DNA of 64,000 nucleotides from positions 206,706-270,705 of the forward strand of contig CAVXSF010000008.1 in assembly GCA_963764345.1 (NCBI GenBank), read 5' to 3'. A program made the position numbers and the translations under genes. This DNA is from an uncultured Bacteroidales bacterium. Lineage in GTDB: Bacteria > Bacteroidota > Bacteroidia > Bacteroidales > GCA-2748055. This document shows positions 50,808 through 63,810 of this stretch, piece by piece. Below the pieces are notes generated by a model, which was given only the letters and a program-made list of their open reading frames with translations, did no database searches and was not told where the DNA came from. Position 1 is the first letter of the stretch, and the number at the start of each line of letters is the position of its first letter.

Positions 50808-51716
50808 TTAGCCTGCATTTTCTTTTTCGCTGATCTTCTCCAGAAAATGTACAAAATCAATGGCACTATCCATCATCCTGACATTATGTGGAAGGCCCTC
50901 TTTCACCGGGTCGGGATCGAAAGTGGAAAAAAGAATGATCTGATCGGGAAATTTCCTGGACAGTTTATCGAGGTATGTCCTGAAGTTGATCCCGGAAATA
51001 TTGGAGCTCAGGGATGTAATGAGATAATCGCAGGGTCTGATCTCCACCACTGCCTGAAGGTCATTGAAGGGGACAGACTGACCCAGGTAAATGACCATGT
51101 TGCCTCTTTTCTTGACCAGGTAATAGTAGAACAACAGGCCGATTTCATGAAGTTCCCCTTCTGGGAGAAAGAGAACAAAGCGTTTGCTGGGTTTATTGGG
51201 TTGGTCTTTATCCATGATGCCATCGATGGCAACAATGAGCTTCTGCCGCACCAGGTTGGAGATGAAATGTTCCTGGGCAGGGTTGATAGCCCCGGTTTGC
51301 CAAAGGATCCCGATTTTCTGAAAGAAAGGGTAAACGGTATACAGGATGGTTTTTTCAAATCCTTCCTGCATAATCTTTCTCGATAATATTTTTTCAAACT
51401 TCTTCTCATCCAGCTCTATCATGGCAATCACCAGGTTGTCAATCAGACTTTCTGTGTCTTGATTCTGCCTGGAAATCTCGTTAATTTTTGAGCTGATCTC
51501 TTCGTTACCCAGGTTGGCAATATGGCTTATTTTAAGCCCGTTACGGTTTAGCAGGGCTACGTTCAGTACTTTTTTCAGATCCAGATCATCGTAGAAACGG
51601 ATATTCGTATCCGTTCGTTTCGGTTCCAGAAGGTTATACCTCTTTTCCCAGATTCTAAGGGTATGAGCCTTGATGCCTGAGATTTTTTCAAGATCCTTGA
51701 TAGAATAGTTTGACAT
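50808..51716 (-). CDS. MerR-family regulator with a C-terminal cobalamin-binding domain (CarH/LitR-like)
   Basis: MerR HTH (YSIKDLEKISGIKAHTLRIWEKRY) and a B12-binding-type Rossmann region with LPEGELHEIGL (E/DxHxxG-like). Confidence 0.75.
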   Translation of the reverse strand: MSNYSIKDLEKISGIKAHTLRIWEKRYNLLEPKRTDTNIRFYDDLDLKKVLNVALLNRNGLKISHIANLGNEEISSKINEISRQNQDTESLIDNLVIAMIELDEKKFEKILSRKIMQEGFEKTILYTVYPFFQKIGILWQTGAINPAQEHFISNLVRQKLIVAIDGIMDKDQPNKPSKRFVLFLPEGELHEIGLLFYYYLVKKRGNMVIYLGQSVPFNDLQAVVEIRPCDYLITSLSSNISGINFRTYLDKLSRKFPDQIILFSTFDPDPVKEGLPHNVRMMDSAIDFVHFLEKISEKENAG

Positions 51717-53292: not shown

Positions 53293-53944
53293 TCACTTCT
53301 TCCGTATCACCATCAGCCCGTCACGTAACGGAAGGATAAAATTTTCCACCGCCGCATCCCCTGTAACATACGCGTTGAAAGCTTCGATACCTAGCGTGGC
53401 TGAGTCTTTGTTTTTGCCGGGGTCGAGGACTTTTCCATACCAGAGAACATTATCGGCAATAATGATCCCACCCGGGGAAAGTCTGGGCAGCACAAGTTTA
53501 TAATATTCGACATATTCTTCTTTTTCGCCGTCGATGAAGACCAGGTCGAAGGTGTCGTTTAGGTTGGGGATGAGTTTCAGGGCATCACCGTTAATCCTTT
53601 TGATCTTTTCCGTCCAGTCCGGCCTTACGGAAAAAGCCATCGCTTACGTCGTTGAGTTCGTCATTGACTTCGAGGGTGATCAGTCGGCCATCGTCTTTCA
53701 GTCCGCGGGCCAGGCATATGGCCGAGTATCCGGTGAAGGTCCCGATTTCCAGGATACGTGAGGGCCGGACCAGCCTGCTGACAAGCTCCAGAAGTTTACC
53801 CTGTACCGGTCCAGACAGCATGGAGGGGAAGGCGGTATTCAGACCGGTGAATCTTCGGATTTCCGCCAACAGCGGATCTTCAGGAGACGAGTGTGCTTCG
53901 ATATACCGGTTCACAATATTTGTGGATTCAAATTGTTCCATCAT
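53293..53944 (-). pseudogene. Class I SAM-dependent O-methyltransferase (family 3, caffeoyl-CoA-OMT/YrrM-like), frame broken in a T4/A4 run at 53606-53609
   Basis: Track ORFs 53591..53944 (..ILEIGTFTGYSAICLARGL..FFRKAGLDGK) and 53293..53640 (IKRINGDALKLIP..DLVFIDGEKEEY..GGIIIADNVLW) join into one standard OMT if 1 nt is removed. Confidence 0.8.
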
Positions 53945-55323: not shown

Positions 55324-56622
55324 ATGAAAAAAGCACTGTTTACGATGAGTTTAATTCTCGTTGCTGCCATTTTTAACGGGTGTAACAAGTATGAACTGGC
55401 TGATGCCCTTAAGTATGGGAAAGGTCATGGAAAGGCACCGAAAGGCAGCTTCGTGGTAAGGATTGAAAACGTATCCACACCCTACGATTATTTTGCTGCG
55501 GGAGCGCAGTTCATCGCCGACGGTAAAGATACGCCCGGACCGGCTCACCCGGGCGAGTCATTTACCGTGAAATTCCATGCAGGACCAGGACACCGGCTCT
55601 CTTTCGCCACCATGTACGGCGCATCCAATGATCTTTATTATGCACCTTCAGACGGAGGTATTCAGCTGTTTAACGGCACCACCCCCACCACAGGTGATAT
55701 AACCGGGATGATCAGTCTTTGGGATGCCGGGACTGAAGTGAACCATGCCCCGGCATCGGGAGAAGACGGCGCCAATGAATCGGTTCCGGTTGAGAGCGTC
55801 CGGAATACCGATAATGTCATGGACGGATTCACCTACAATACTGTTGAACAGAACATCAAAGTAATGCTTGACTATGACGGGACAAGCATGTTCACCTTAA
55901 CCGTGCAGGACCTGGCCGGATCGAGCACACCGCTGTCACCGGTTGCCTGGGTGGTGCACTACGACGGGCAGAAGCCGATTTTTACCGAAGGACAATTGGA
56001 TTACGGTCATGGTCTTGAAGACCTGGCTGAAACGGGTAATGCAGAACCGTTAAGTACCTACCTTGAAATGAACAGCGGTTATGTTTCACCGGTTGCTCCC
56101 GGCGTGTGGGTCGTTCACAAGCAGGGTCAGAAACCGATTTTTAAAGAGGGCAAACCCGATTATGGCCAGGGACTGGAGAAGCTTTCTGAAGTCGGCGATC
56201 CGTCAGAAGTATACAATTCACTGGTTGCAGGGGGTTATAACGCCGGTGTTTACAACATACCCGACGGGGCTTCAGATCCCGCTCCGCTCATGCCCGGACA
56301 GTCGTACACGTTTGTCGTCCAGGCCAAAGTGGGTGACTACCTCAGTTTTGCCTCCATGCTGGGTAAATCGAATGACGAGTTCTTTGCTCCCGGTGATATG
56401 GGCATCCGGTTGTTTGATGGTGCGACAGCAATTGGCGGAGATATAACAGGAAAGATCATGCTGTGGGATGCCGGTACGGAAGTGAATGAGTACCCCGGCG
56501 CCGGAATTCACGAGGGTGGTAACGGAGGCATCGATGAATCACAGGATGTAATGACCGTGAACGACCAGTTCATGTGGCCCGCGGTATCCCAGGTCATTAA
56601 AGTATCTATCATGGCTTTATAG
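55324..56622 (+). CDS. Lipoprotein with two spondin_N-like domains flanking two short PVAPGVWVVH..GQKPIF repeats
   Basis: Lipobox (IFNGC). The module is duplicated internally (HPGESFTVKFHAGPGHRLSFATMYGASNDLYYAP / MPGQSYTFVVQAKVGDYLSFASMLGKSNDEFFAP, each followed by GDITGxIxLWDAGTEVN). The family assignment is from memory. Confidence 0.5.
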   Translation: MKKALFTMSLILVAAIFNGCNKYELADALKYGKGHGKAPKGSFVVRIENVSTPYDYFAAGAQFIADGKDTPGPAHPGESFTVKFHAGPGHRLSFATMYGASNDLYYAPSDGGIQLFNGTTPTTGDITGMISLWDAGTEVNHAPASGEDGANESVPVESVRNTDNVMDGFTYNTVEQNIKVMLDYDGTSMFTLTVQDLAGSSTPLSPVAWVVHYDGQKPIFTEGQLDYGHGLEDLAETGNAEPLSTYLEMNSGYVSPVAPGVWVVHKQGQKPIFKEGKPDYGQGLEKLSEVGDPSEVYNSLVAGGYNAGVYNIPDGASDPAPLMPGQSYTFVVQAKVGDYLSFASMLGKSNDEFFAPGDMGIRLFDGATAIGGDITGKIMLWDAGTEVNEYPGAGIHEGGNGGIDESQDVMTVNDQFMWPAVSQVIKVSIMAL

Positions 56623-56663
56623 TTTGAGGGTTAGATGCTCGTGATGAGAGCCATGTATTGAGA

Positions 56664-56700
56664 CCCGCCGGTTTTTCCTAATGGAACCGGCGGGTTTTTA
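56664..56700 (+). terminator. Rho-independent terminator after the spondin-like gene
   Basis: CCCGCCGGTT / AACCGGCGGG stem followed by T5. Confidence 0.7.
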
Positions 56701-56773: not shown

Positions 56774-56790
56774 GAAAAGAGGAGGTTTAC

Positions 56791-56970
56791 CCTGGCCGGC
56801 TCAATCACTCTTGCGCCAGATGCCTTGAAACTACCGGGGCTATCCCGGAAATGATGATGAAGGAATGGGAATACGGAGTAGGCGGGGCGAGGATGAAATG
56901 CCGGAGGATTTCATCTGCCGCTTGTAATCAGTATGCAACAGCCTCCGGCGATATCATCGATCATATGACT
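56791..56970 (+). pseudogene. Decayed fragment of a dienelactone-hydrolase paralogue
   Basis: CCCTGGCCGGCTCAATCACTCTTGCGCCAGATGCC...GGATGAAATGCCGGAGGATTTCATCTGCCGC aligns with 60004-60140 of the intact gene (CCCTGGCCGGCTTTATCAGTCTGGCCCCGGATGCC...GAATGAAATGCTGGAGGATTTCATCGCCGCC). The fragment has no intact reading frame. Confidence 0.65.
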
Positions 56971-57021: not shown

Positions 57022-59287
57022 CTAAAATTCATCGAACGAAATCATATTTTCGGGAACGCCGAGGCCTGCCAGCATTTTCGTCCCTGCCTCAATCAACGCA
57101 GGCGGGCCGCAAAGGTAATATTCAACCTCACCGGGATGTTTATGGTCCTTCAGGTATTTTTTCAGTAATACCTCGTGAATAAATCCTCTGTCACCATGCC
57201 AGTTGTCATGTTTGCCGGGTTCTGACAAGGCCGCATGAAAGGTAAAATTATCGTTGGTTTCAGCCAGATTTTTAAAATAGTCATCGTAGAAAAGATCATC
57301 CAATGTTCGGGCTCCGTACCAGAAACTCACCTTCCGTTTCGTTTTCAATGATTCGAACAGGTACGACACGTGTGACCGGAGGGGCGCCATTCCAGCTCCT
57401 CCGCCTAAATAAACCATCTCCCTGTCCGAATCTTTGATGTAAAAATCACCGTAGGGTCCTTTCAGCATTACTTCATCACCCGGTTTCAGGTTAAACACAT
57501 ACGAGGTCCCGATTCCCGCAGTGATGTTCCTGTCACCGGGCGGCAGGGAAATCCGCACATTGAACCGGAGCAGCCGGTCCTTTTCGGGATTATTCGCCAT
57601 GGAGAAGTTACGTTTTGTATGGATCGTATTCCTGGAAAAGCAGTCGAATAATCCCAGGTCCTTCCAGGTTTTATCATACGGATTATCAATCAGGATCTGG
57701 TCAAAAGTTATGTCAAACGGAGGGATCATCAATTGAATATATTCACCCGGCCTAAATGTGAAGTTCTTCTCTTCTAATGTTTCCAGGACAAGTTCTTTAA
57801 TAAAGGCTGCCACATTATGATTGCTCACCACCCTGAACCTTATTTCCCTATCCGTATCCGGGATGGAGGCTTTCTTTTTGCCGGAAATGTGCAGGTACAC
57901 CTTATCGTCATCCAGACTTACGTTAAACGTACGAATGGCAACACATGCCGGTATCCGTTTGGGAGACCCGTCTTTAATACTGAACCGGCCATTGTGTTTG
58001 GGGCACTCGATCAGGTCCCCGATAACCACTCCTTCAGCCAGATGGGCATTACTGTGGGAGCAAATACCGTCTGTGGCGTAAAATTTGTTTTCATCCGTTC
58101 TGTATATGGCATATGTTCTCTGGTTGAAATCAAAGCGGACCACATCTCCTTTTGGAAGGTCACCAATACGGCAAACTTCAATCCGGCTGTCCACCACCCT
58201 TGAAGGATCTCCCGTAATGATCTCCTTCTGTTCCATCTGGTGACCGGCGCCTTCAGGCAGTTTCCGTTCCACAAAATAGTATGGATCTTTCCGTTGCTTC
58301 AGGAGGGTGGGGATCATCTCCCGGTATACTTCAAGGATCCCGATATACGGCGTGGGGCAATCGTTCTTCACCAATTCATGCAAACGCGGGAGGGCATGAT
58401 AGGGTACAAGAGGGAACATATGATGTTCAACGTGGTAATTCATATTCCAGTACAAATACCGGTGCAGCCGGTTCATGTAAACGGTCCGGCTGTTCAGCCG
58501 GTGGTCAAGCACATTCTCCTGTAAACCGGCGTGTTGGGTTAACCCGTATAACTGTAACAACCATGAACCAAAGAGGGTCGGAATTCCAACATACATCAAA
58601 GGCAGGATGCTGCCGATAATAAACCGACAGACCGATCACACATAAAAATATGAGCATATAGATCCGTGCTTCGAGGATGATCTTCTTATAATCGGATTCA
58701 GGAACATAGGTTGCCACCTCAGGGTCTATTTTCCCTGCAATATGCCGGAATAACCTCTTTGCCTCGGGAATGGTACCACCCAGGCCAAAAAATCCACGTA
58801 TCACCTTATTCAAATTCGGAGGCCGCGGTACAGAAATCTCTGGATCACGACCCCTGATAATGGTATCACTGTGATGACGGGCATGGCTCCACCGCCAGGC
58901 AGTTGACTGCCTGAAAACCATAAATGAAGCGATCTTATATAAAAGATTATTCATCCAGTCCGTCTTGAAGGCGGTACCGTGACCCGCCTCATGCCACCTT
59001 GAATCGGAGGTGGAAGCATACAGTGTACTATAAATGATATAAGGAAGAATAAACCACCAGGTACCCCATAACAGGAAGACGAGGAAGCCTGAACCTATGA
59101 TAAGACCGAACCAGATGATCGTATCCCTGAGAGCAGGACCGTCTTTCCTGACCAGCAGCTCGCGCATTTTTTCCCTGGGAACAGGCGACTGATACCATTC
59201 TGCATCAGCCAGCCCTGCTTTTATCGCCTTTTTTGTTTCAACGCCAATCAGGCTGTAATCCCTGACCATTTCCTGAGTTTCTTCCAT
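57022..59287 (-). pseudogene. Fusion of a membrane di-iron fatty-acid-desaturase-family domain, a Rieske [2Fe-2S] domain and an NqrF/FNR-like FAD-NAD(P)H reductase; frame broken near 58615
   Basis: His boxes HEAGH and HARHH lie in ORF 58505..59287 and HVEHH in ORF 57022..58599. The Rieske motif is CSHSNAH..x16..CPKHNGRF. The reductase motifs are RNFSMANNP and GGGAGMAPLRSH. The two ORFs join at ..GLSVYY / GSILPLMYVGIPTLFG with a 1-nt shift. Confidence 0.8.
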
Positions 59288-59630
59288 ATAATTCCTGCGG
59301 ATAAAGGGAAATTAGAAATCATTTAATGTGGTACGACGGATCCATGTGCCAATATAAGAACCAGACAGCCGTGATTTTGTTTACGACCGGGGGATACGGG
59401 ACTTCATCCATTCTATCGCACTCCAGTGGATTCGCAATCATCCAAGTCTGAACATGTCGCCCGATTCCCTGCAGGCATCAATCTTCTCATCACAAAATAG
59501 CATCCTTAAATATTATCAGGACCCGATAAACGGTGTGCAGCCTTCCCCTTGCCCTGTTATATTTCCTGCAGCCTTTTGCCATAAGAGTTTGTTGAACTAT
59601 TCCTGATTCCGTTTTGTTCTTACCTTACAA

Positions 59631-60527
59631 ATGATTTCTATGAACACAATCAATAAGGAAAACATTCCTCAGGAAGTATTTGATCTGTATGACGCCTATG
59701 CTCATAACAAGATCGACAGAAGAAAATTCATCGACAGGCTCTCCACCTATGCAGTAGGAGGGATCACCGTAGGGGCTTTGATGAGTTTTATGATGCCACG
59801 TTACCAGGAAACAGTTCAGGTTAGTCAGGATGATCCAGGATTGACTACAGAATACGTTACCTATGAATCTCCCAAAGGCGGAGGCTCAATTCGCGGTCAG
59901 CTGTCGCGGCCAAAGAATGCAGGCGGCAGATTGCCGGGCATTGTCGTTGTTCATGAAAACAGGGGACTGAATCCGTATATCGCGGATGTAGGGCGCAGGC
60001 TTGCCCTGGCCGGCTTTATCAGTCTGGCCCCGGATGCCCTGACACCACTGGGGGGCTATCCAGGAAATGATGATGATGGAAGGGAATTACAGAGTAAGCG
60101 GGACAGGAATGAAATGCTGGAGGATTTCATCGCCGCCTTTGAATATCTGAAATCCAGTTCAGAATGTACAGGAAAGGTTGGTGTTGTCGGCTTTTGCTTC
60201 GGCGGCTGGATCACAAATATGATGGCCGTGAAAGTGCCTGACCTGGCTGCAGCGGTTGCATTTTATGGTGTACAGCCCTCTCCAGAATTGGTTCCTGAGA
60301 TTCATGCTCCCTTATTGTTACACTATGCAGCTCTCGACAATCGTGTGAATGAGGGATGGCCGGCCTATGAAGCAGCATTGAAAAAATATCACAAGGAGTA
60401 TACAGCCTATATATATCCGGATGTCAATCACGGCTTCCATAATGACTCGACACCACGGTATGATAAAGCTGCCGCTGAGCTTGCCTGGAAAAGGACCCTG
60501 GATTTCTTTCTGGAGAAATTGAAATAG
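59631..60527 (+). CDS. Dienelactone hydrolase family protein with a Tat-type signal
   Basis: Twin-arginine motif (DRRKFIDRLSTYAVGG), a VVVHENRGL region, nucleophile motif GFCFGG, and C-terminal HGFHN. Confidence 0.85.
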   Translation: MISMNTINKENIPQEVFDLYDAYAHNKIDRRKFIDRLSTYAVGGITVGALMSFMMPRYQETVQVSQDDPGLTTEYVTYESPKGGGSIRGQLSRPKNAGGRLPGIVVVHENRGLNPYIADVGRRLALAGFISLAPDALTPLGGYPGNDDDGRELQSKRDRNEMLEDFIAAFEYLKSSSECTGKVGVVGFCFGGWITNMMAVKVPDLAAAVAFYGVQPSPELVPEIHAPLLLHYAALDNRVNEGWPAYEAALKKYHKEYTAYIYPDVNHGFHNDSTPRYDKAAAELAWKRTLDFFLEKLK

Positions 60528-60990
60528 GAGAAACTCCCGGTCCGGTCCCGAACTTCAGCAACGTTTACCTGAAAAATACAATAAAGGCAAACATCTGCCT
60601 TAGATATTTCTAAACTATGATGTCCGGTAAAACTGAAAAGCGTTTTAATGATCTTTCCACACCTTCATTTCAGGTGTTCAGCTTCCGGAAAAAGTTTCAC
60701 CATTACAGGCACATTAGCCAGCCAAATTGTAATGGAAGGCCACCTGAACATTAGGATTCATCCCCGGACATCCATCAAATGGTTATGGGAGAGTGCGGGC
60801 ATACAGGATTTAAAGACCTTGTATCTGGGACTGCAGTTACACAACTTATTCGTAAAAAGGCGTTGTACTATTGATCCGGAAACGTTGCCTTATGGAGAAA
60901 ATACAATGAGGTGGCATGAGAGCCTGACATGAGGGACAAATCGTTTTTGTTGTTTTATTTCTAACCCTCTTTAAAATATCATTGCTAATC

Positions 60991-62724: not shown

Positions 62725-63810
62725 TTATTGACCCTGAACCATTATTTTTACGGCTATACCCGGCTTAATTTCTTCACTGCCGCGGGTTAGCAATGTATCA
62801 CCTTCTTGCATGTCCCCGAATATTTCGACGCTGTCCTTCATTGATATCCCCTCCTTTACATCTACCCACTCAACTGTGCCAAGGTTTGCCCTTACAATGA
62901 ATTGTCTCTCAAGAGAGGTCACTACCGAACTAAAAGGAACACCAAAGGAGCTGCCTTCCCGCATGAGTATGATGTGGGCCATGGCGTACATCCCCGGCTT
63001 GAGTTCATTGTTCCCGTTGTCATACTCATATTCCCATAATTCGGTGCGGGTATCGGGATCAATGCTTTCGGATTTTCTAGCGGGATTGGCATAGAATGTT
63101 TTATTTGCCACTGCATCCGTAGTGAAGGCTAATACTTTCTCTTCCGGATGGCTTTGAACGTAGGCTTCCGGGACATGAATCCGCAACCGCAGGATATCCG
63201 GTCTTTCCAATACGAAGAGTATACTGTGATCTTTTGATCCCACGAGGTCGCCAACATCGATGAACCGTTTGGTGATAATGCAGTTAAAGGGAGCCTGGAT
63301 GGTAAGATAAGCCTGCAAATGCCGGTAAGAAAGGGTTTTTGACCTTGCTGAAACGAAACGACGCGGAACTGTCTGCGGAGACCAGGTTCCCGGCAGTGAT
63401 CAAATCACTTTCTGCGATAACCCCCTGCTCCCGGGATGCCTTGCTCAACCGGTTGAACTTATCAAGGCTTGCTTCATAATGAGCCTTTGCTTCGTCATAC
63501 TCTGCTTTAGCTTTGCACTCCGGGCCACAATCTCCGGGGCATCCAGCACCGCGAGGATCTGGCCCTTCCTGACTTTATCACCAATATCAACCAAATATTT
63601 CTGAACGTAACCCTCTACCTTTGCATTGATCTCTGCCCGTTCAAAAGGCAATAATTCTGCAGGCAGATCCAATGTTTTGCTGACCTTTTTCTTCGTAAGG
63701 ACAAAGGCATCTTTAGCATCTTCCGCTTTGTGGTTTTTTGTCCTTTCAGGTGCGCAGGACAGAAGAATGAACGCAAAGAAAACCGAAAGAAGCAGTGCTG
63801 TCTTTTGCAT
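62725..63810 (-). pseudogene. RND/efflux periplasmic adaptor (membrane fusion protein), two frame breaks (about 63520 and about 63355)
   Basis: Lipoprotein N-terminus (ILLSCAP) and lipoyl-like VGDKVRKGQILAVLDAPE. The middle coiled coil is readable only in a second frame (AKAEYDEAKAHYEASLDKFNRL). The C-terminal half is in a third frame (LTIQAPFNCIITKRFIDVGDLVG...). Confidence 0.75.

Follow-up and report, generated by a model that had tools for sequence, protein, structure and literature searches.

The window analysed here is a stretch of 64,000 nucleotides from an uncultured Bacteroidales bacterium (GenBank assembly GCA_963764345.1, contig CAVXSF010000008.1, positions 206,706 to 270,705 of the forward strand). 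At positions 57022–59287, its minus strand carries what is almost certainly a gene for a three-domain protein, in which a membrane di-iron oxygenase, a Rieske ferredoxin and a flavin-dependent reductase follow one another on a single polypeptide. In the map of open reading frames (ORFs), the gene appears as two pieces: an upstream ORF of 260 amino acids (58505–59287, minus strand) and a downstream ORF of 525 amino acids (57022–58599, minus strand) that overlaps it in another frame. The frame break was located by a MAFFT alignment with the DNA of an intact relative, at locus L001, which contains 64 mismatches and exactly one gap (column 671) in 2,266 columns. The gap corresponds to an extra base at 58616, the coding-strand T in TTATTA[T]CGG on the minus strand. 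Deleting this base yields an ORF of 754 codons plus a stop codon, with zero internal stops. The protein encoded at L001 (P0001), the closest public relative, is likewise 754 amino acids long, intact and 97% identical.

The N-terminal domain (58282–59140, minus strand; approximately residues 50–335) is a predicted membrane di-iron oxygenase of the fatty-acid-desaturase superfamily (Pfam PF00487, FA_desaturase), assigned to a MocD-like clade. Its Pfam match is split over the two ORFs, with model positions 2–170 in the upstream ORF (E 9.8e-12) and 163–248 in the downstream ORF (E 9e-17); the two halves score 45.6 and 62.1 bits against a cut-off of 29.7, and the profile is contiguous across the break. 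The domain contains three histidine boxes, all on the minus strand: HEAGH (58979–58993; residues 99–103), HARHH (58871–58885; residues 135–139) and HVEHH (58420–58434; residues 285–289), the last of which was read directly from the DNA. It is followed by a Rieske-type [2Fe-2S] ferredoxin domain (57886–58188, minus strand; residues 367–467; Pfam Rieske E 2.9e-18), whose cluster ligands lie in the motifs CSH at residue 409 (C409 and H411; 58054–58062, minus strand) and CPKH at residue 428 (C428 and H431; 57994–58005, minus strand).

The C-terminal domain (57025–57837, minus strand; residues 484–754) is a flavin adenine dinucleotide (FAD)/nicotinamide adenine dinucleotide (NADH) reductase of the NqrF C-terminal type. 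In the downstream ORF, the Rieske match is followed by matches to FAD_binding_6 (E 4.4e-4) and NAD_binding_1 (E 5.8e-17), and a motif search of the joined protein places the FAD motif RNFS at residue 559 and the NADH motif GGAGMAP at residue 629. Across 31 homologues with 60–97% identity, the metal-ligand residues are invariant. These include all eight box histidines (H99, H103, H135, H138, H139, H285, H288 and H289) and the four Rieske ligands; Glu100 of the first box is also invariant.

These results bear out much of the first-pass annotation of this DNA, which had joined the two ORFs into one gene with a single frame break and placed the whole electron-transfer chain, from NAD(P)H through FAD and a [2Fe-2S] cluster to the di-iron centre, on one polypeptide. 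The one-base gap relative to L001 and the stop-free joined ORF support the first of these claims, and the domain content and invariant ligands support the second. The histidine boxes, the Rieske pattern CSH...CPKH and the RNFS motif that it quoted are all present in the joined protein, and the domain-architecture check that it proposed returns FA_desaturase, Rieske, FAD_binding_6 and NAD_binding_1 from Pfam. Only its length estimate needs adjustment, from approximately 745 to the measured 754 amino acids.

Kyte–Doolittle analysis identifies hydrophobic stretches at residues 52–87 and 200–235, which form two hairpins flanking the histidine boxes. Correspondingly, a structure model of the full-length protein places helices at residues 49–72, 77–103, 197–224 and 228–252, again as two hairpins. 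Given four helices, and by analogy with the usual behaviour of the superfamily, the Rieske and flavin domains would be cytoplasmic, where NADH is found. At E < 0.01, a sequence search of the PDB turned up no solved structure related to the oxygenase domain, and the top 50 Foldseek matches of the full-length model are exclusively of NqrF/FNR type and are uninformative on this domain.

The frame break lies between predicted membrane helices 3 and 4, in a loop/helix region spanned by the hydrophobic stretch at residues 200–235. From comparison with L001, it is probably a consensus error, one of several in the assembly. The window is approximately 95% identical to L001 in DNA across 17 kb, with gene order conserved, and three of the 12 genes compared are frame-broken in the window (one further gene at L001 lacks a window counterpart). 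Besides the fusion gene, these are an RND efflux adaptor gene (62728–63810, minus strand), with a 1-base deletion and a 4-base insertion, and an O-methyltransferase gene (53296–53944, minus strand), with a 1-base insertion. A consensus error is favoured because such scattered indels in unrelated neighbours fit it better than they fit three independent recent inactivations.

A count against this interpretation is that position 58616 is outside any homopolymer, as are all four indels in the three genes, and this leaves room for a real mutation. If the extra base were real, the window copy would be a genuine, very recent pseudogene, which would be compatible with any reading of the family's function. 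Long-read errors concentrate in homopolymers, and the copy in this lineage stands without the family's usual partner genes, whether these were lost or were never present, which could mean a relaxed need for the protein. A pseudogene is nonetheless judged rather unlikely: the two unrelated genes within the same 17 kb carry similar frame-breaking indels, and the best 120 homologues and best 80 genome loci described below are all intact. Furthermore, apart from the extra base, the gene shows the signature of purifying selection: of the codons that differ from the 97%-identical relative, 36 are synonymous and 24 nonsynonymous, which indicates constraint until recently.

Two further explanations for the break were considered. 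Programmed frameshifting is ruled out, because the extra base is absent from the 97%-identical relative and all other homologues examined have a single ORF. Separate functional subunits are unlikely, as the break interrupts the second membrane hairpin, and the ORF that follows it starts at an internal TTG without signs of an independent start.

Relationship to NqrF and MocDEF

The first-pass annotation had likened the FAD/NAD(P)H domain to the C-terminal half of NqrF, and its kinship with the NqrF flavin domain is indeed genuine and close. TIGR01941, the equivalog model for NqrF, reaches 327.7 bits (cut-off 295), the NqrF FAD/NAD domain structure 2r6h is matched at E 1.9e-82, and Foldseek aligns NqrF structures with target TM-scores of 0.93–0.95 at 44–46% identity. 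Matches of this strength lie well outside what chance would produce. The C-terminal 270 residues of the fused protein are thus a close FAD/NADH homologue of the NqrF represented by PDB entries 2r6h, 4u9u, 7qty and 8a1t (chain F). The two proteins differ in where their electrons go, since in the fused protein these would reach the fused Rieske and di-iron sites and not NqrD/E.

Most databases name the fused protein as NqrF itself, subunit F of the Na+-translocating NADH:quinone reductase. Of 30 top homologues with a source name, 27 are listed as NqrF, two as 'MocE subfamily Rieske' and one under a composite domain name. The prevalence of the name and the above-threshold TIGR01941 score are what speak for this identity, and domain content refutes it. 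Only model positions 132–403 of 405 are matched; NqrF's membrane helix at the N-terminus and its plant-type [2Fe-2S] domain are missing, with no CxxxxCxxC motif anywhere in the joined protein, and desaturase-like and Rieske domains stand in their place. Moreover, the adjacent genes in the window are not nqr genes and no nqr-type family was seen among the annotated neighbours of related loci, the rest of the 64-kb window not having been searched for them. The chance that the protein is NqrF is accordingly negligible.

Because TIGR01941 passes its cut-off on the FAD/NADH half alone, the NqrF name is a systematic mislabel of the fused family. Any metabolic reconstruction in which NqrF is counted will be in error for organisms carrying the fused protein. 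The NqrF-named homologues are found within the range P0004–P0115 of the retrieved proteins, and their names originate from NCBI and JGI.

The remainder of the protein resembles components of a different system. Residues 1–346 match stand-alone proteins of approximately 360 amino acids, with 54–56% identity and 97–100% coverage, in 405 plasmid or chromid records, mostly from Rhizobium, Sinorhizobium, Ralstonia and Ensifer. The S. meliloti cluster of these homologues includes UniProt Q92VY9 'MocD' (S. meliloti 1021) and the S. fredii 'putative hydrocarbon oxygenase MocD'. The Rieske domain of the window protein is 48% identical to S. meliloti MocE and 44% identical to Acidiphilium MocE, and among NCBIfam Rieske models it scores highest against TIGR02377 (MocE family; model positions 3–101 of 101), at 110.3 bits.

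Gene order around these stand-alone homologues was read on three replicons. An operon on S. meliloti pSymB comprises a LacI regulator gene and the order desaturase-like, Rieske and FAD-dependent oxidoreductase. On Acidiphilium pACMV1, the same trio includes a Rieske protein annotated as 'MocE family 2Fe-2S type ferredoxin', and is followed downstream by a triosephosphate isomerase (TIM) barrel, three Gfo/Idh/MocA oxidoreductases and two sugar-phosphate isomerase/epimerases. On a plasmid of R. leguminosarum (Vaf-108; L087, 6897–9056), the cluster around the MocD homologue comprises iolD/iolE and genes for an ABC sugar-type transporter, a Gfo/Idh/MocA oxidoreductase and an isomerase/epimerase. 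A Rieske partner, which the first-pass annotation had considered unusual, is therefore normal for this clade, as MocD-annotated homologues are encoded beside a MocE-family Rieske protein and a reductase. On the R. leguminosarum plasmid, the MocD homologue comes after a 'sterol desaturase family' gene and has neither a Rieske nor a reductase gene close by, apparently a different partner set for the same oxygenase.

From these sequence relationships, the window protein is best described as MocD fused to MocE, with an NqrF-type flavin domain replacing the glutathione-reductase-type MocF. Both systems share the order oxygenase then Rieske, and both associate with a xylose-isomerase-like TIM barrel and with sugar or inositol genes. 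They differ in that the fused protein has all three functions on one polypeptide, and in that its reductase is an FNR-family FAD/NADH domain, whereas MocF is an FAD-dependent protein of approximately 410 amino acids of the pyridine-nucleotide-disulfide type. Furthermore, the hosts of the fused form are Bacteroidota, Acidobacteriota, Verrucomicrobiota and others, not rhizobia, and no mocABCR genes lie nearby. What is new relative to MocDEF is thus the single-chain fusion and the replaced reductase type, a non-orthologous swap of NqrF type for MocF type, in a family that is abundant in sequence data. A full-text literature search found no paper on a fusion of desaturase-like, Rieske and NqrF-type domains.

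MocD, MocE and MocF reportedly belong to the rhizopine catabolism of Sinorhizobium meliloti L5-30 and Rhizobium leguminosarum, and are said to have been described by Bahar and co-workers in 1998 and 2000. In the passages of two later papers that cite the earlier of these studies, mocDEF is presented as a ferredoxin oxygenase complex that is required to catabolise the rhizopine 3-O-methyl-scyllo-inosamine (Bahar et al. 1998, via PMC10107442 and PMC5132102). MocD is described as a three-histidine-box protein that converts 3-O-methyl-scyllo-inosamine into scyllo-inosamine, an O-demethylation (PMC2593844). Genes similar to mocDEF, adjoining a xylose-isomerase-like 'xylA2', mark woody-host lineages of Pseudomonas syringae (PMC5132102), and mocDEF homologues of Rhizobium mesoamericanum are up-regulated 1.5–2.1-fold in root exudate dominated by pinitol, a methyl-inositol (PMC5789663).

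Distribution and gene neighbourhoods of the fused family

A word-indexed protein search retrieved 3,804 proteins at E ≤ 1e-10, relatives with partial matches included. The best 120 of these 3,804 homologues are all 745–775 amino acids long and uninterrupted, and have an identical set of Pfam domains. A scan of one genome per species found at least 587 stretches encoding a relative; the best 80 of these match end to end at 54–78% identity, are all intact and span six or more phyla. The hosts within Bacteroidota include Prolixibacteraceae, Mariniphaga, Wenyingzhuangia, Sunxiuqinia and Saccharicrinis. Many others are Acidobacteriaceae; Verrucomicrobiota are represented by Opitutaceae, Chthoniobacter, Terrimicrobiaceae and Lentimonas, and the remainder include Chloroflexota, Planctomycetota, Kiritimatiellia and one betaproteobacterium.

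The fused architecture is therefore common, not rare. The fused protein is present in at least 80 species genomes and in many metagenome sequences, and most of the named homologues are labelled as a sodium-pump subunit. The first-pass annotation had raised the prospect that the architecture would prove both common and already assigned a function; it is common, and the only function attached to it is the one implied by the erroneous NqrF name.

To characterise the neighbourhoods of the fusion gene, ORFs were called in the 80 genome loci and clustered by BLASTP, and recurrent clusters were named with Pfam; 78 of the loci have neighbours. A sugar-related cluster is directly adjacent in 37 of the 78 loci and within two genes in 42. 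The commonest partner is a divergent xylose-isomerase-like TIM barrel of 270–300 amino acids. Its main cluster (cluster 1) occurs in 23 loci, in 21 of which it is adjacent and co-directional; a related cluster (cluster 17) occurs in five, and one or other of the two is adjacent in 26 of 78. Examples are found at L017 9142–9960, L010 9158–9967 and L061 12292–13104, with 25 further loci.

The TIM-barrel partner has nine invariant residues (Glu126, His128, Arg129, Asp154, Ser156, His157, His184, Arg186 and Glu234), whose conservation suggests an active enzyme. It has no NCBIfam match and only remote relatives in the PDB, namely AsbF (E 7.7e-5), 3-keto-glucoside 4-epimerase (E 7.2e-4) and IolE (E 1.7e-3).

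Other recurrent neighbours are aldose 1-epimerase (12 loci), an MFS sugar transporter (nine), AraC regulators (nine), the sugar/proton symporter RhaT (six), URO-D-family proteins (five), canonical AP_endonuc_2 barrels (four) and GH127 (four). L-rhamnose mutarotase is an operon-like neighbour in three cases, and FGGY sugar kinase was found in two of the loci examined. In two Bacteroidota loci, a cassette of TIM barrel, fusion gene and RhaT lies inside polysaccharide utilisation loci with GH2, GH38, GH123 and SusC/D. In one further locus, an FGGY sugar kinase gene occurs together with genes for an MFS sugar transporter, a SASA carbohydrate esterase and a protein with a 3-keto-disaccharide-hydrolase domain. 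Genes linked to lipids, carotenoids or alkanes were not seen among the recurrent neighbours of the related loci.

Methyltransferase-like genes form a second group of partners. URO-D-family genes lie directly upstream of the fusion gene, and co-directional with it, in loci of Anaerolineae (Chloroflexota), Kiritimatiellia, Chthoniobacter (Verrucomicrobiota) and the betaproteobacterium. The URO-D family has the fold of the MtaA-type corrinoid methyltransferases, and a corrinoid protein together with URO-D-like methyltransferases is the usual make-up of O2-independent O-demethylases in methylotrophic anaerobes. In an operon of an Anaerolineae metagenome-assembled genome (L061, 2542–17300), a periplasmic sugar-binding protein, four URO-D-like proteins and a B12-binding corrinoid protein are encoded in the 5′ part, followed by the fusion protein, the TIM barrel, a second AP_endonuc_2 protein, an FGGY sugar kinase and a LarA-like protein. 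In a Prolixibacteraceae locus (L005, 10253–14853), AraC, B12-binding, URO-D, CobW and Met_synt_B12 genes adjoin the fusion gene. The corrinoid and URO-D genes of these two loci are candidates for oxygen-independent sugar or cyclitol demethylases. The presence of the fusion and a corrinoid system in one sugar operon is suggestive, but only suggestive, of two routes, with and without O2, for removal of the same methyl group.

Proposed function of the fused protein

A carbohydrate- or cyclitol-linked role for the family is likely. The first-pass annotation had considered the substrate beyond inference and listed lipid acyl chains, alkanes, carotenoids and sphingoid bases as possibilities; this is probably wrong, as homology and gene neighbourhoods together point to a water-soluble sugar or cyclitol. 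With moderate confidence, and on comparative grounds, the protein is proposed to be a self-sufficient membrane oxygenase of the MocDEF type, in which an NqrF-type reductase replaces MocF, that would act on an imported sugar or cyclitol, possibly by O-demethylation.

In the proposed mechanism, NADH would reduce FAD, from which electrons would pass one at a time to the Rieske cluster and then to the di-iron site. The four predicted helices would anchor a cytoplasm-facing di-iron centre held by the three histidine boxes, and the Rieske domain would dock on the cytoplasmic face of the membrane domain in order to reduce it. Such electron delivery parallels that by rubredoxin to AlkB and by cytochrome b5 to desaturases. 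The reduced site would activate O2 and hydroxylate a C–H bond in a small, hydrophilic compound. This is most likely to be a sugar or a cyclitol, which in typical loci would be imported by the adjacent transporter. The preferred reaction is hydroxylation of an O-methyl group, after which formaldehyde and the free sugar would be released. The same reaction has been proposed for MocDEF acting on 3-O-methyl-scyllo-inosamine (PMC2593844).

O-demethylation specifically is put forward as a hypothesis whose probability falls somewhat short of even. A possible functional analogue occurs in marine Bacteroidota, where a P450/ferredoxin/ferredoxin reductase system takes the methyl group off 6-O-methyl-D-galactose (Reisky et al. 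2018; PMC6292453, PMC10033563). This soluble system is the only demonstrated sugar O-demethylase (PMC6292453). There, too, a sugar O-methyl group is removed in an O2- and NAD(P)H-dependent reaction, within polysaccharide utilisation loci and with release of formaldehyde. The P450 system has an unrelated catalyst and differs in being a soluble haem-thiolate system of three components with demonstrated activity, whereas the fused family is a membrane di-iron family whose activity is predicted.

A different reaction on the same kind of substrate is unlikely, but has some evidence in its favour. The fused protein could be a carbohydrate or cyclitol oxygenase that hydroxylates the C6-methyl group of a 6-deoxy sugar, or that catalyses another C–H hydroxylation or a desaturation, with the TIM barrel processing the product. 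The sugar-linked neighbourhoods apply equally to such an enzyme, and RhaT and L-rhamnose mutarotase among the partners point to 6-deoxyhexoses of the rhamnose or fucose type. In addition, the TIM-barrel partner is distantly similar to dehydratases and keto-sugar epimerases, and is not obviously needed for plain demethylation. However, O-demethylation is the sole role proposed in the literature for the homologous MocDEF (PMC2593844), and a reaction of another kind would leave the recurrent corrinoid and URO-D methyltransferase genes in several phyla unexplained.

A lipid-modifying enzyme with its own electron chain, whether an acyl-lipid, sphingoid or carotenoid desaturase/hydroxylase or an alkane hydroxylase, is improbable. 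In its favour, the oxygenase domain belongs to the Pfam family FA_desaturase, the protein is an integral membrane protein, and about half of the loci, the window included, are without adjacent sugar genes. The NCBIfam model for Delta(10) desaturase DesB is also matched, albeit weakly, at 35.3 bits and far under its cut-off of 500. A comparable score (28.5 bits; cut-off 380) is obtained with the model NF041365 for GntB, the L-arginine gamma-hydroxylase of guanitoxin biosynthesis, whose substrate is soluble, and the superfamily name is therefore uninformative on lipids. GntB is a distant relative without fused redox domains; it is likewise a desaturase-superfamily membrane enzyme, and its small polar substrate shows that the fold is not restricted to lipids.

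As for alkanes, none of the four AlkB signatures (HELxHK, EHxxGHH, NYxEHYG and LQRHSDHH) is present in the joined protein, and an AlkB model is not among the 25 NCBIfam hits shown of the 30 found. Both the 54–56% identity to MocD-annotated proteins of sugar- or inositol-type operons and the lack of lipid, carotenoid and alkane genes among the recurrent neighbours argue against a lipid substrate of any kind. Fusions of AlkB with rubredoxin, and of ferredoxin, ferredoxin reductase and AlkB in Leptospira, Limnobacter and Polaromonas, have been described (PMC4021335). In these, as here, a desaturase-like di-iron membrane enzyme is joined to its own electron carriers. They differ in that they belong to another clade and carry rubredoxin or plant-type ferredoxin in place of a Rieske domain. 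Furthermore, the domain order of the fused family is the opposite, with the oxygenase first, and its gene context is one of sugars, not alkanes.

Several points weigh against the proposed MocDEF-type sugar or cyclitol oxygenase. The proteins used for comparison are homologues named MocD in databases, not the authentic MocD of S. meliloti L5-30, and the Rieske domain scores under the curated TIGR02377 cut-off (110.3 against 136.15 bits). The full-length structure model is of moderate quality (predicted local distance difference test 74.4, predicted TM-score 0.54), and does not establish the docking or geometry of the domains. Sugar and methyl partner genes are absent from 36 of the 78 loci, including the window and its closest relatives L001 and L006, and the corrinoid/URO-D link comes from approximately six of 79 loci. 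Mutarotases and sugar kinases would suit sugar modification of any type and are not specific to demethylation. The full-text literature search found no biochemical assay of MocD, only rhizopine genetics and the P450 sugar demethylase. To our knowledge, neither MocD nor the fused family has been assayed biochemically, and the rhizopine demethylation role is a genetic model.

A broader proposal, advanced only tentatively, is that the family comprises widespread, unrecognised, self-sufficient membrane di-iron demethylases of O-methyl sugars or methyl-cyclitols in polysaccharide-degrading phyla (Bacteroidota, Acidobacteriota, Verrucomicrobiota, Planctomycetota and Chloroflexota), and that the neighbouring corrinoid and URO-D genes process these substrates by a route without O2. 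Methylated fucose, xylose, rhamnose or galactose would be among the candidates, as would cyclitols of the pinitol type. Methyl ethers block glycoside catabolism, and a methylated sugar or cyclitol substrate would account for their removal by major polysaccharide degraders of soil and water. If the proposal is true, the fused family would be a second solution for aerobic methyl-sugar catabolism beside the P450 system, and the corrinoid/URO-D genes a first candidate for anaerobic sugar demethylation, a step described as still unexplained in a 2025 paper (PMC12316285). The arrangement of NADH, FAD, Rieske and di-iron sites on a single chain would also be convenient as a self-sufficient model, since members of this superfamily are difficult to reconstitute.

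Surroundings of the gene in the window

The copy in the window is an ordinary, probably mis-assembled member of the family that lacks the usual partner genes; it is the family that makes a worthwhile target. By tblastn, none of the TIM-barrel, mutarotase, sugar-transporter, AraC, URO-D or AP_endonuc_2 clusters was found in the 64-kb window. As a consequence, this copy provides no context evidence, and its functional assignment is borrowed from the family. The gene surroundings at L001 and L006 are like those in the window.

The fusion gene is divergent from a dienelactone-hydrolase-family gene (59631–60527), and the 343-bp intergenic region between them (59288–59630) is the presumed promoter site. 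A scan for sigma-70-type promoters gave no signal above shuffled controls, and the Bacteroidota motif TAnnTTTG is absent upstream of the fusion gene. On its other side, the fusion gene is convergent with an unannotated lipoprotein gene (55324–56622; 432 amino acids). The terminator scan around the fusion gene performed no better than on shuffled sequence. A strong terminator-like hairpin, with 16 pairs and then a T-run, lies just past the lipoprotein gene (56660–56698, plus strand); none comparable was found for the fusion gene. In the 400-bp spacer 3′ of the fusion gene, a fragment at 56780–56918 (plus strand) resembles residues 119–165 of the protein encoded by the dienelactone-hydrolase-family gene, and may be a duplication remnant.

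Comparison with L001 also revealed a 915-bp segment (L001 7534–8448), containing an outer-membrane gene of the Phenol_MetA_deg family, that is absent from the window at approximately 60835–60838. It is a clean presence/absence difference between genomes that are approximately 95% identical. Elsewhere, the window encodes PorP/SprF and CHU_C type IX secretion genes typical of Bacteroidota. Synteny with L001 identifies a gene at 50811–51716 (minus strand) as encoding a MerR-type regulator with a B12-binding_2 domain, a pairing known from light- or B12-responsive regulators of the CarH/LitR type.

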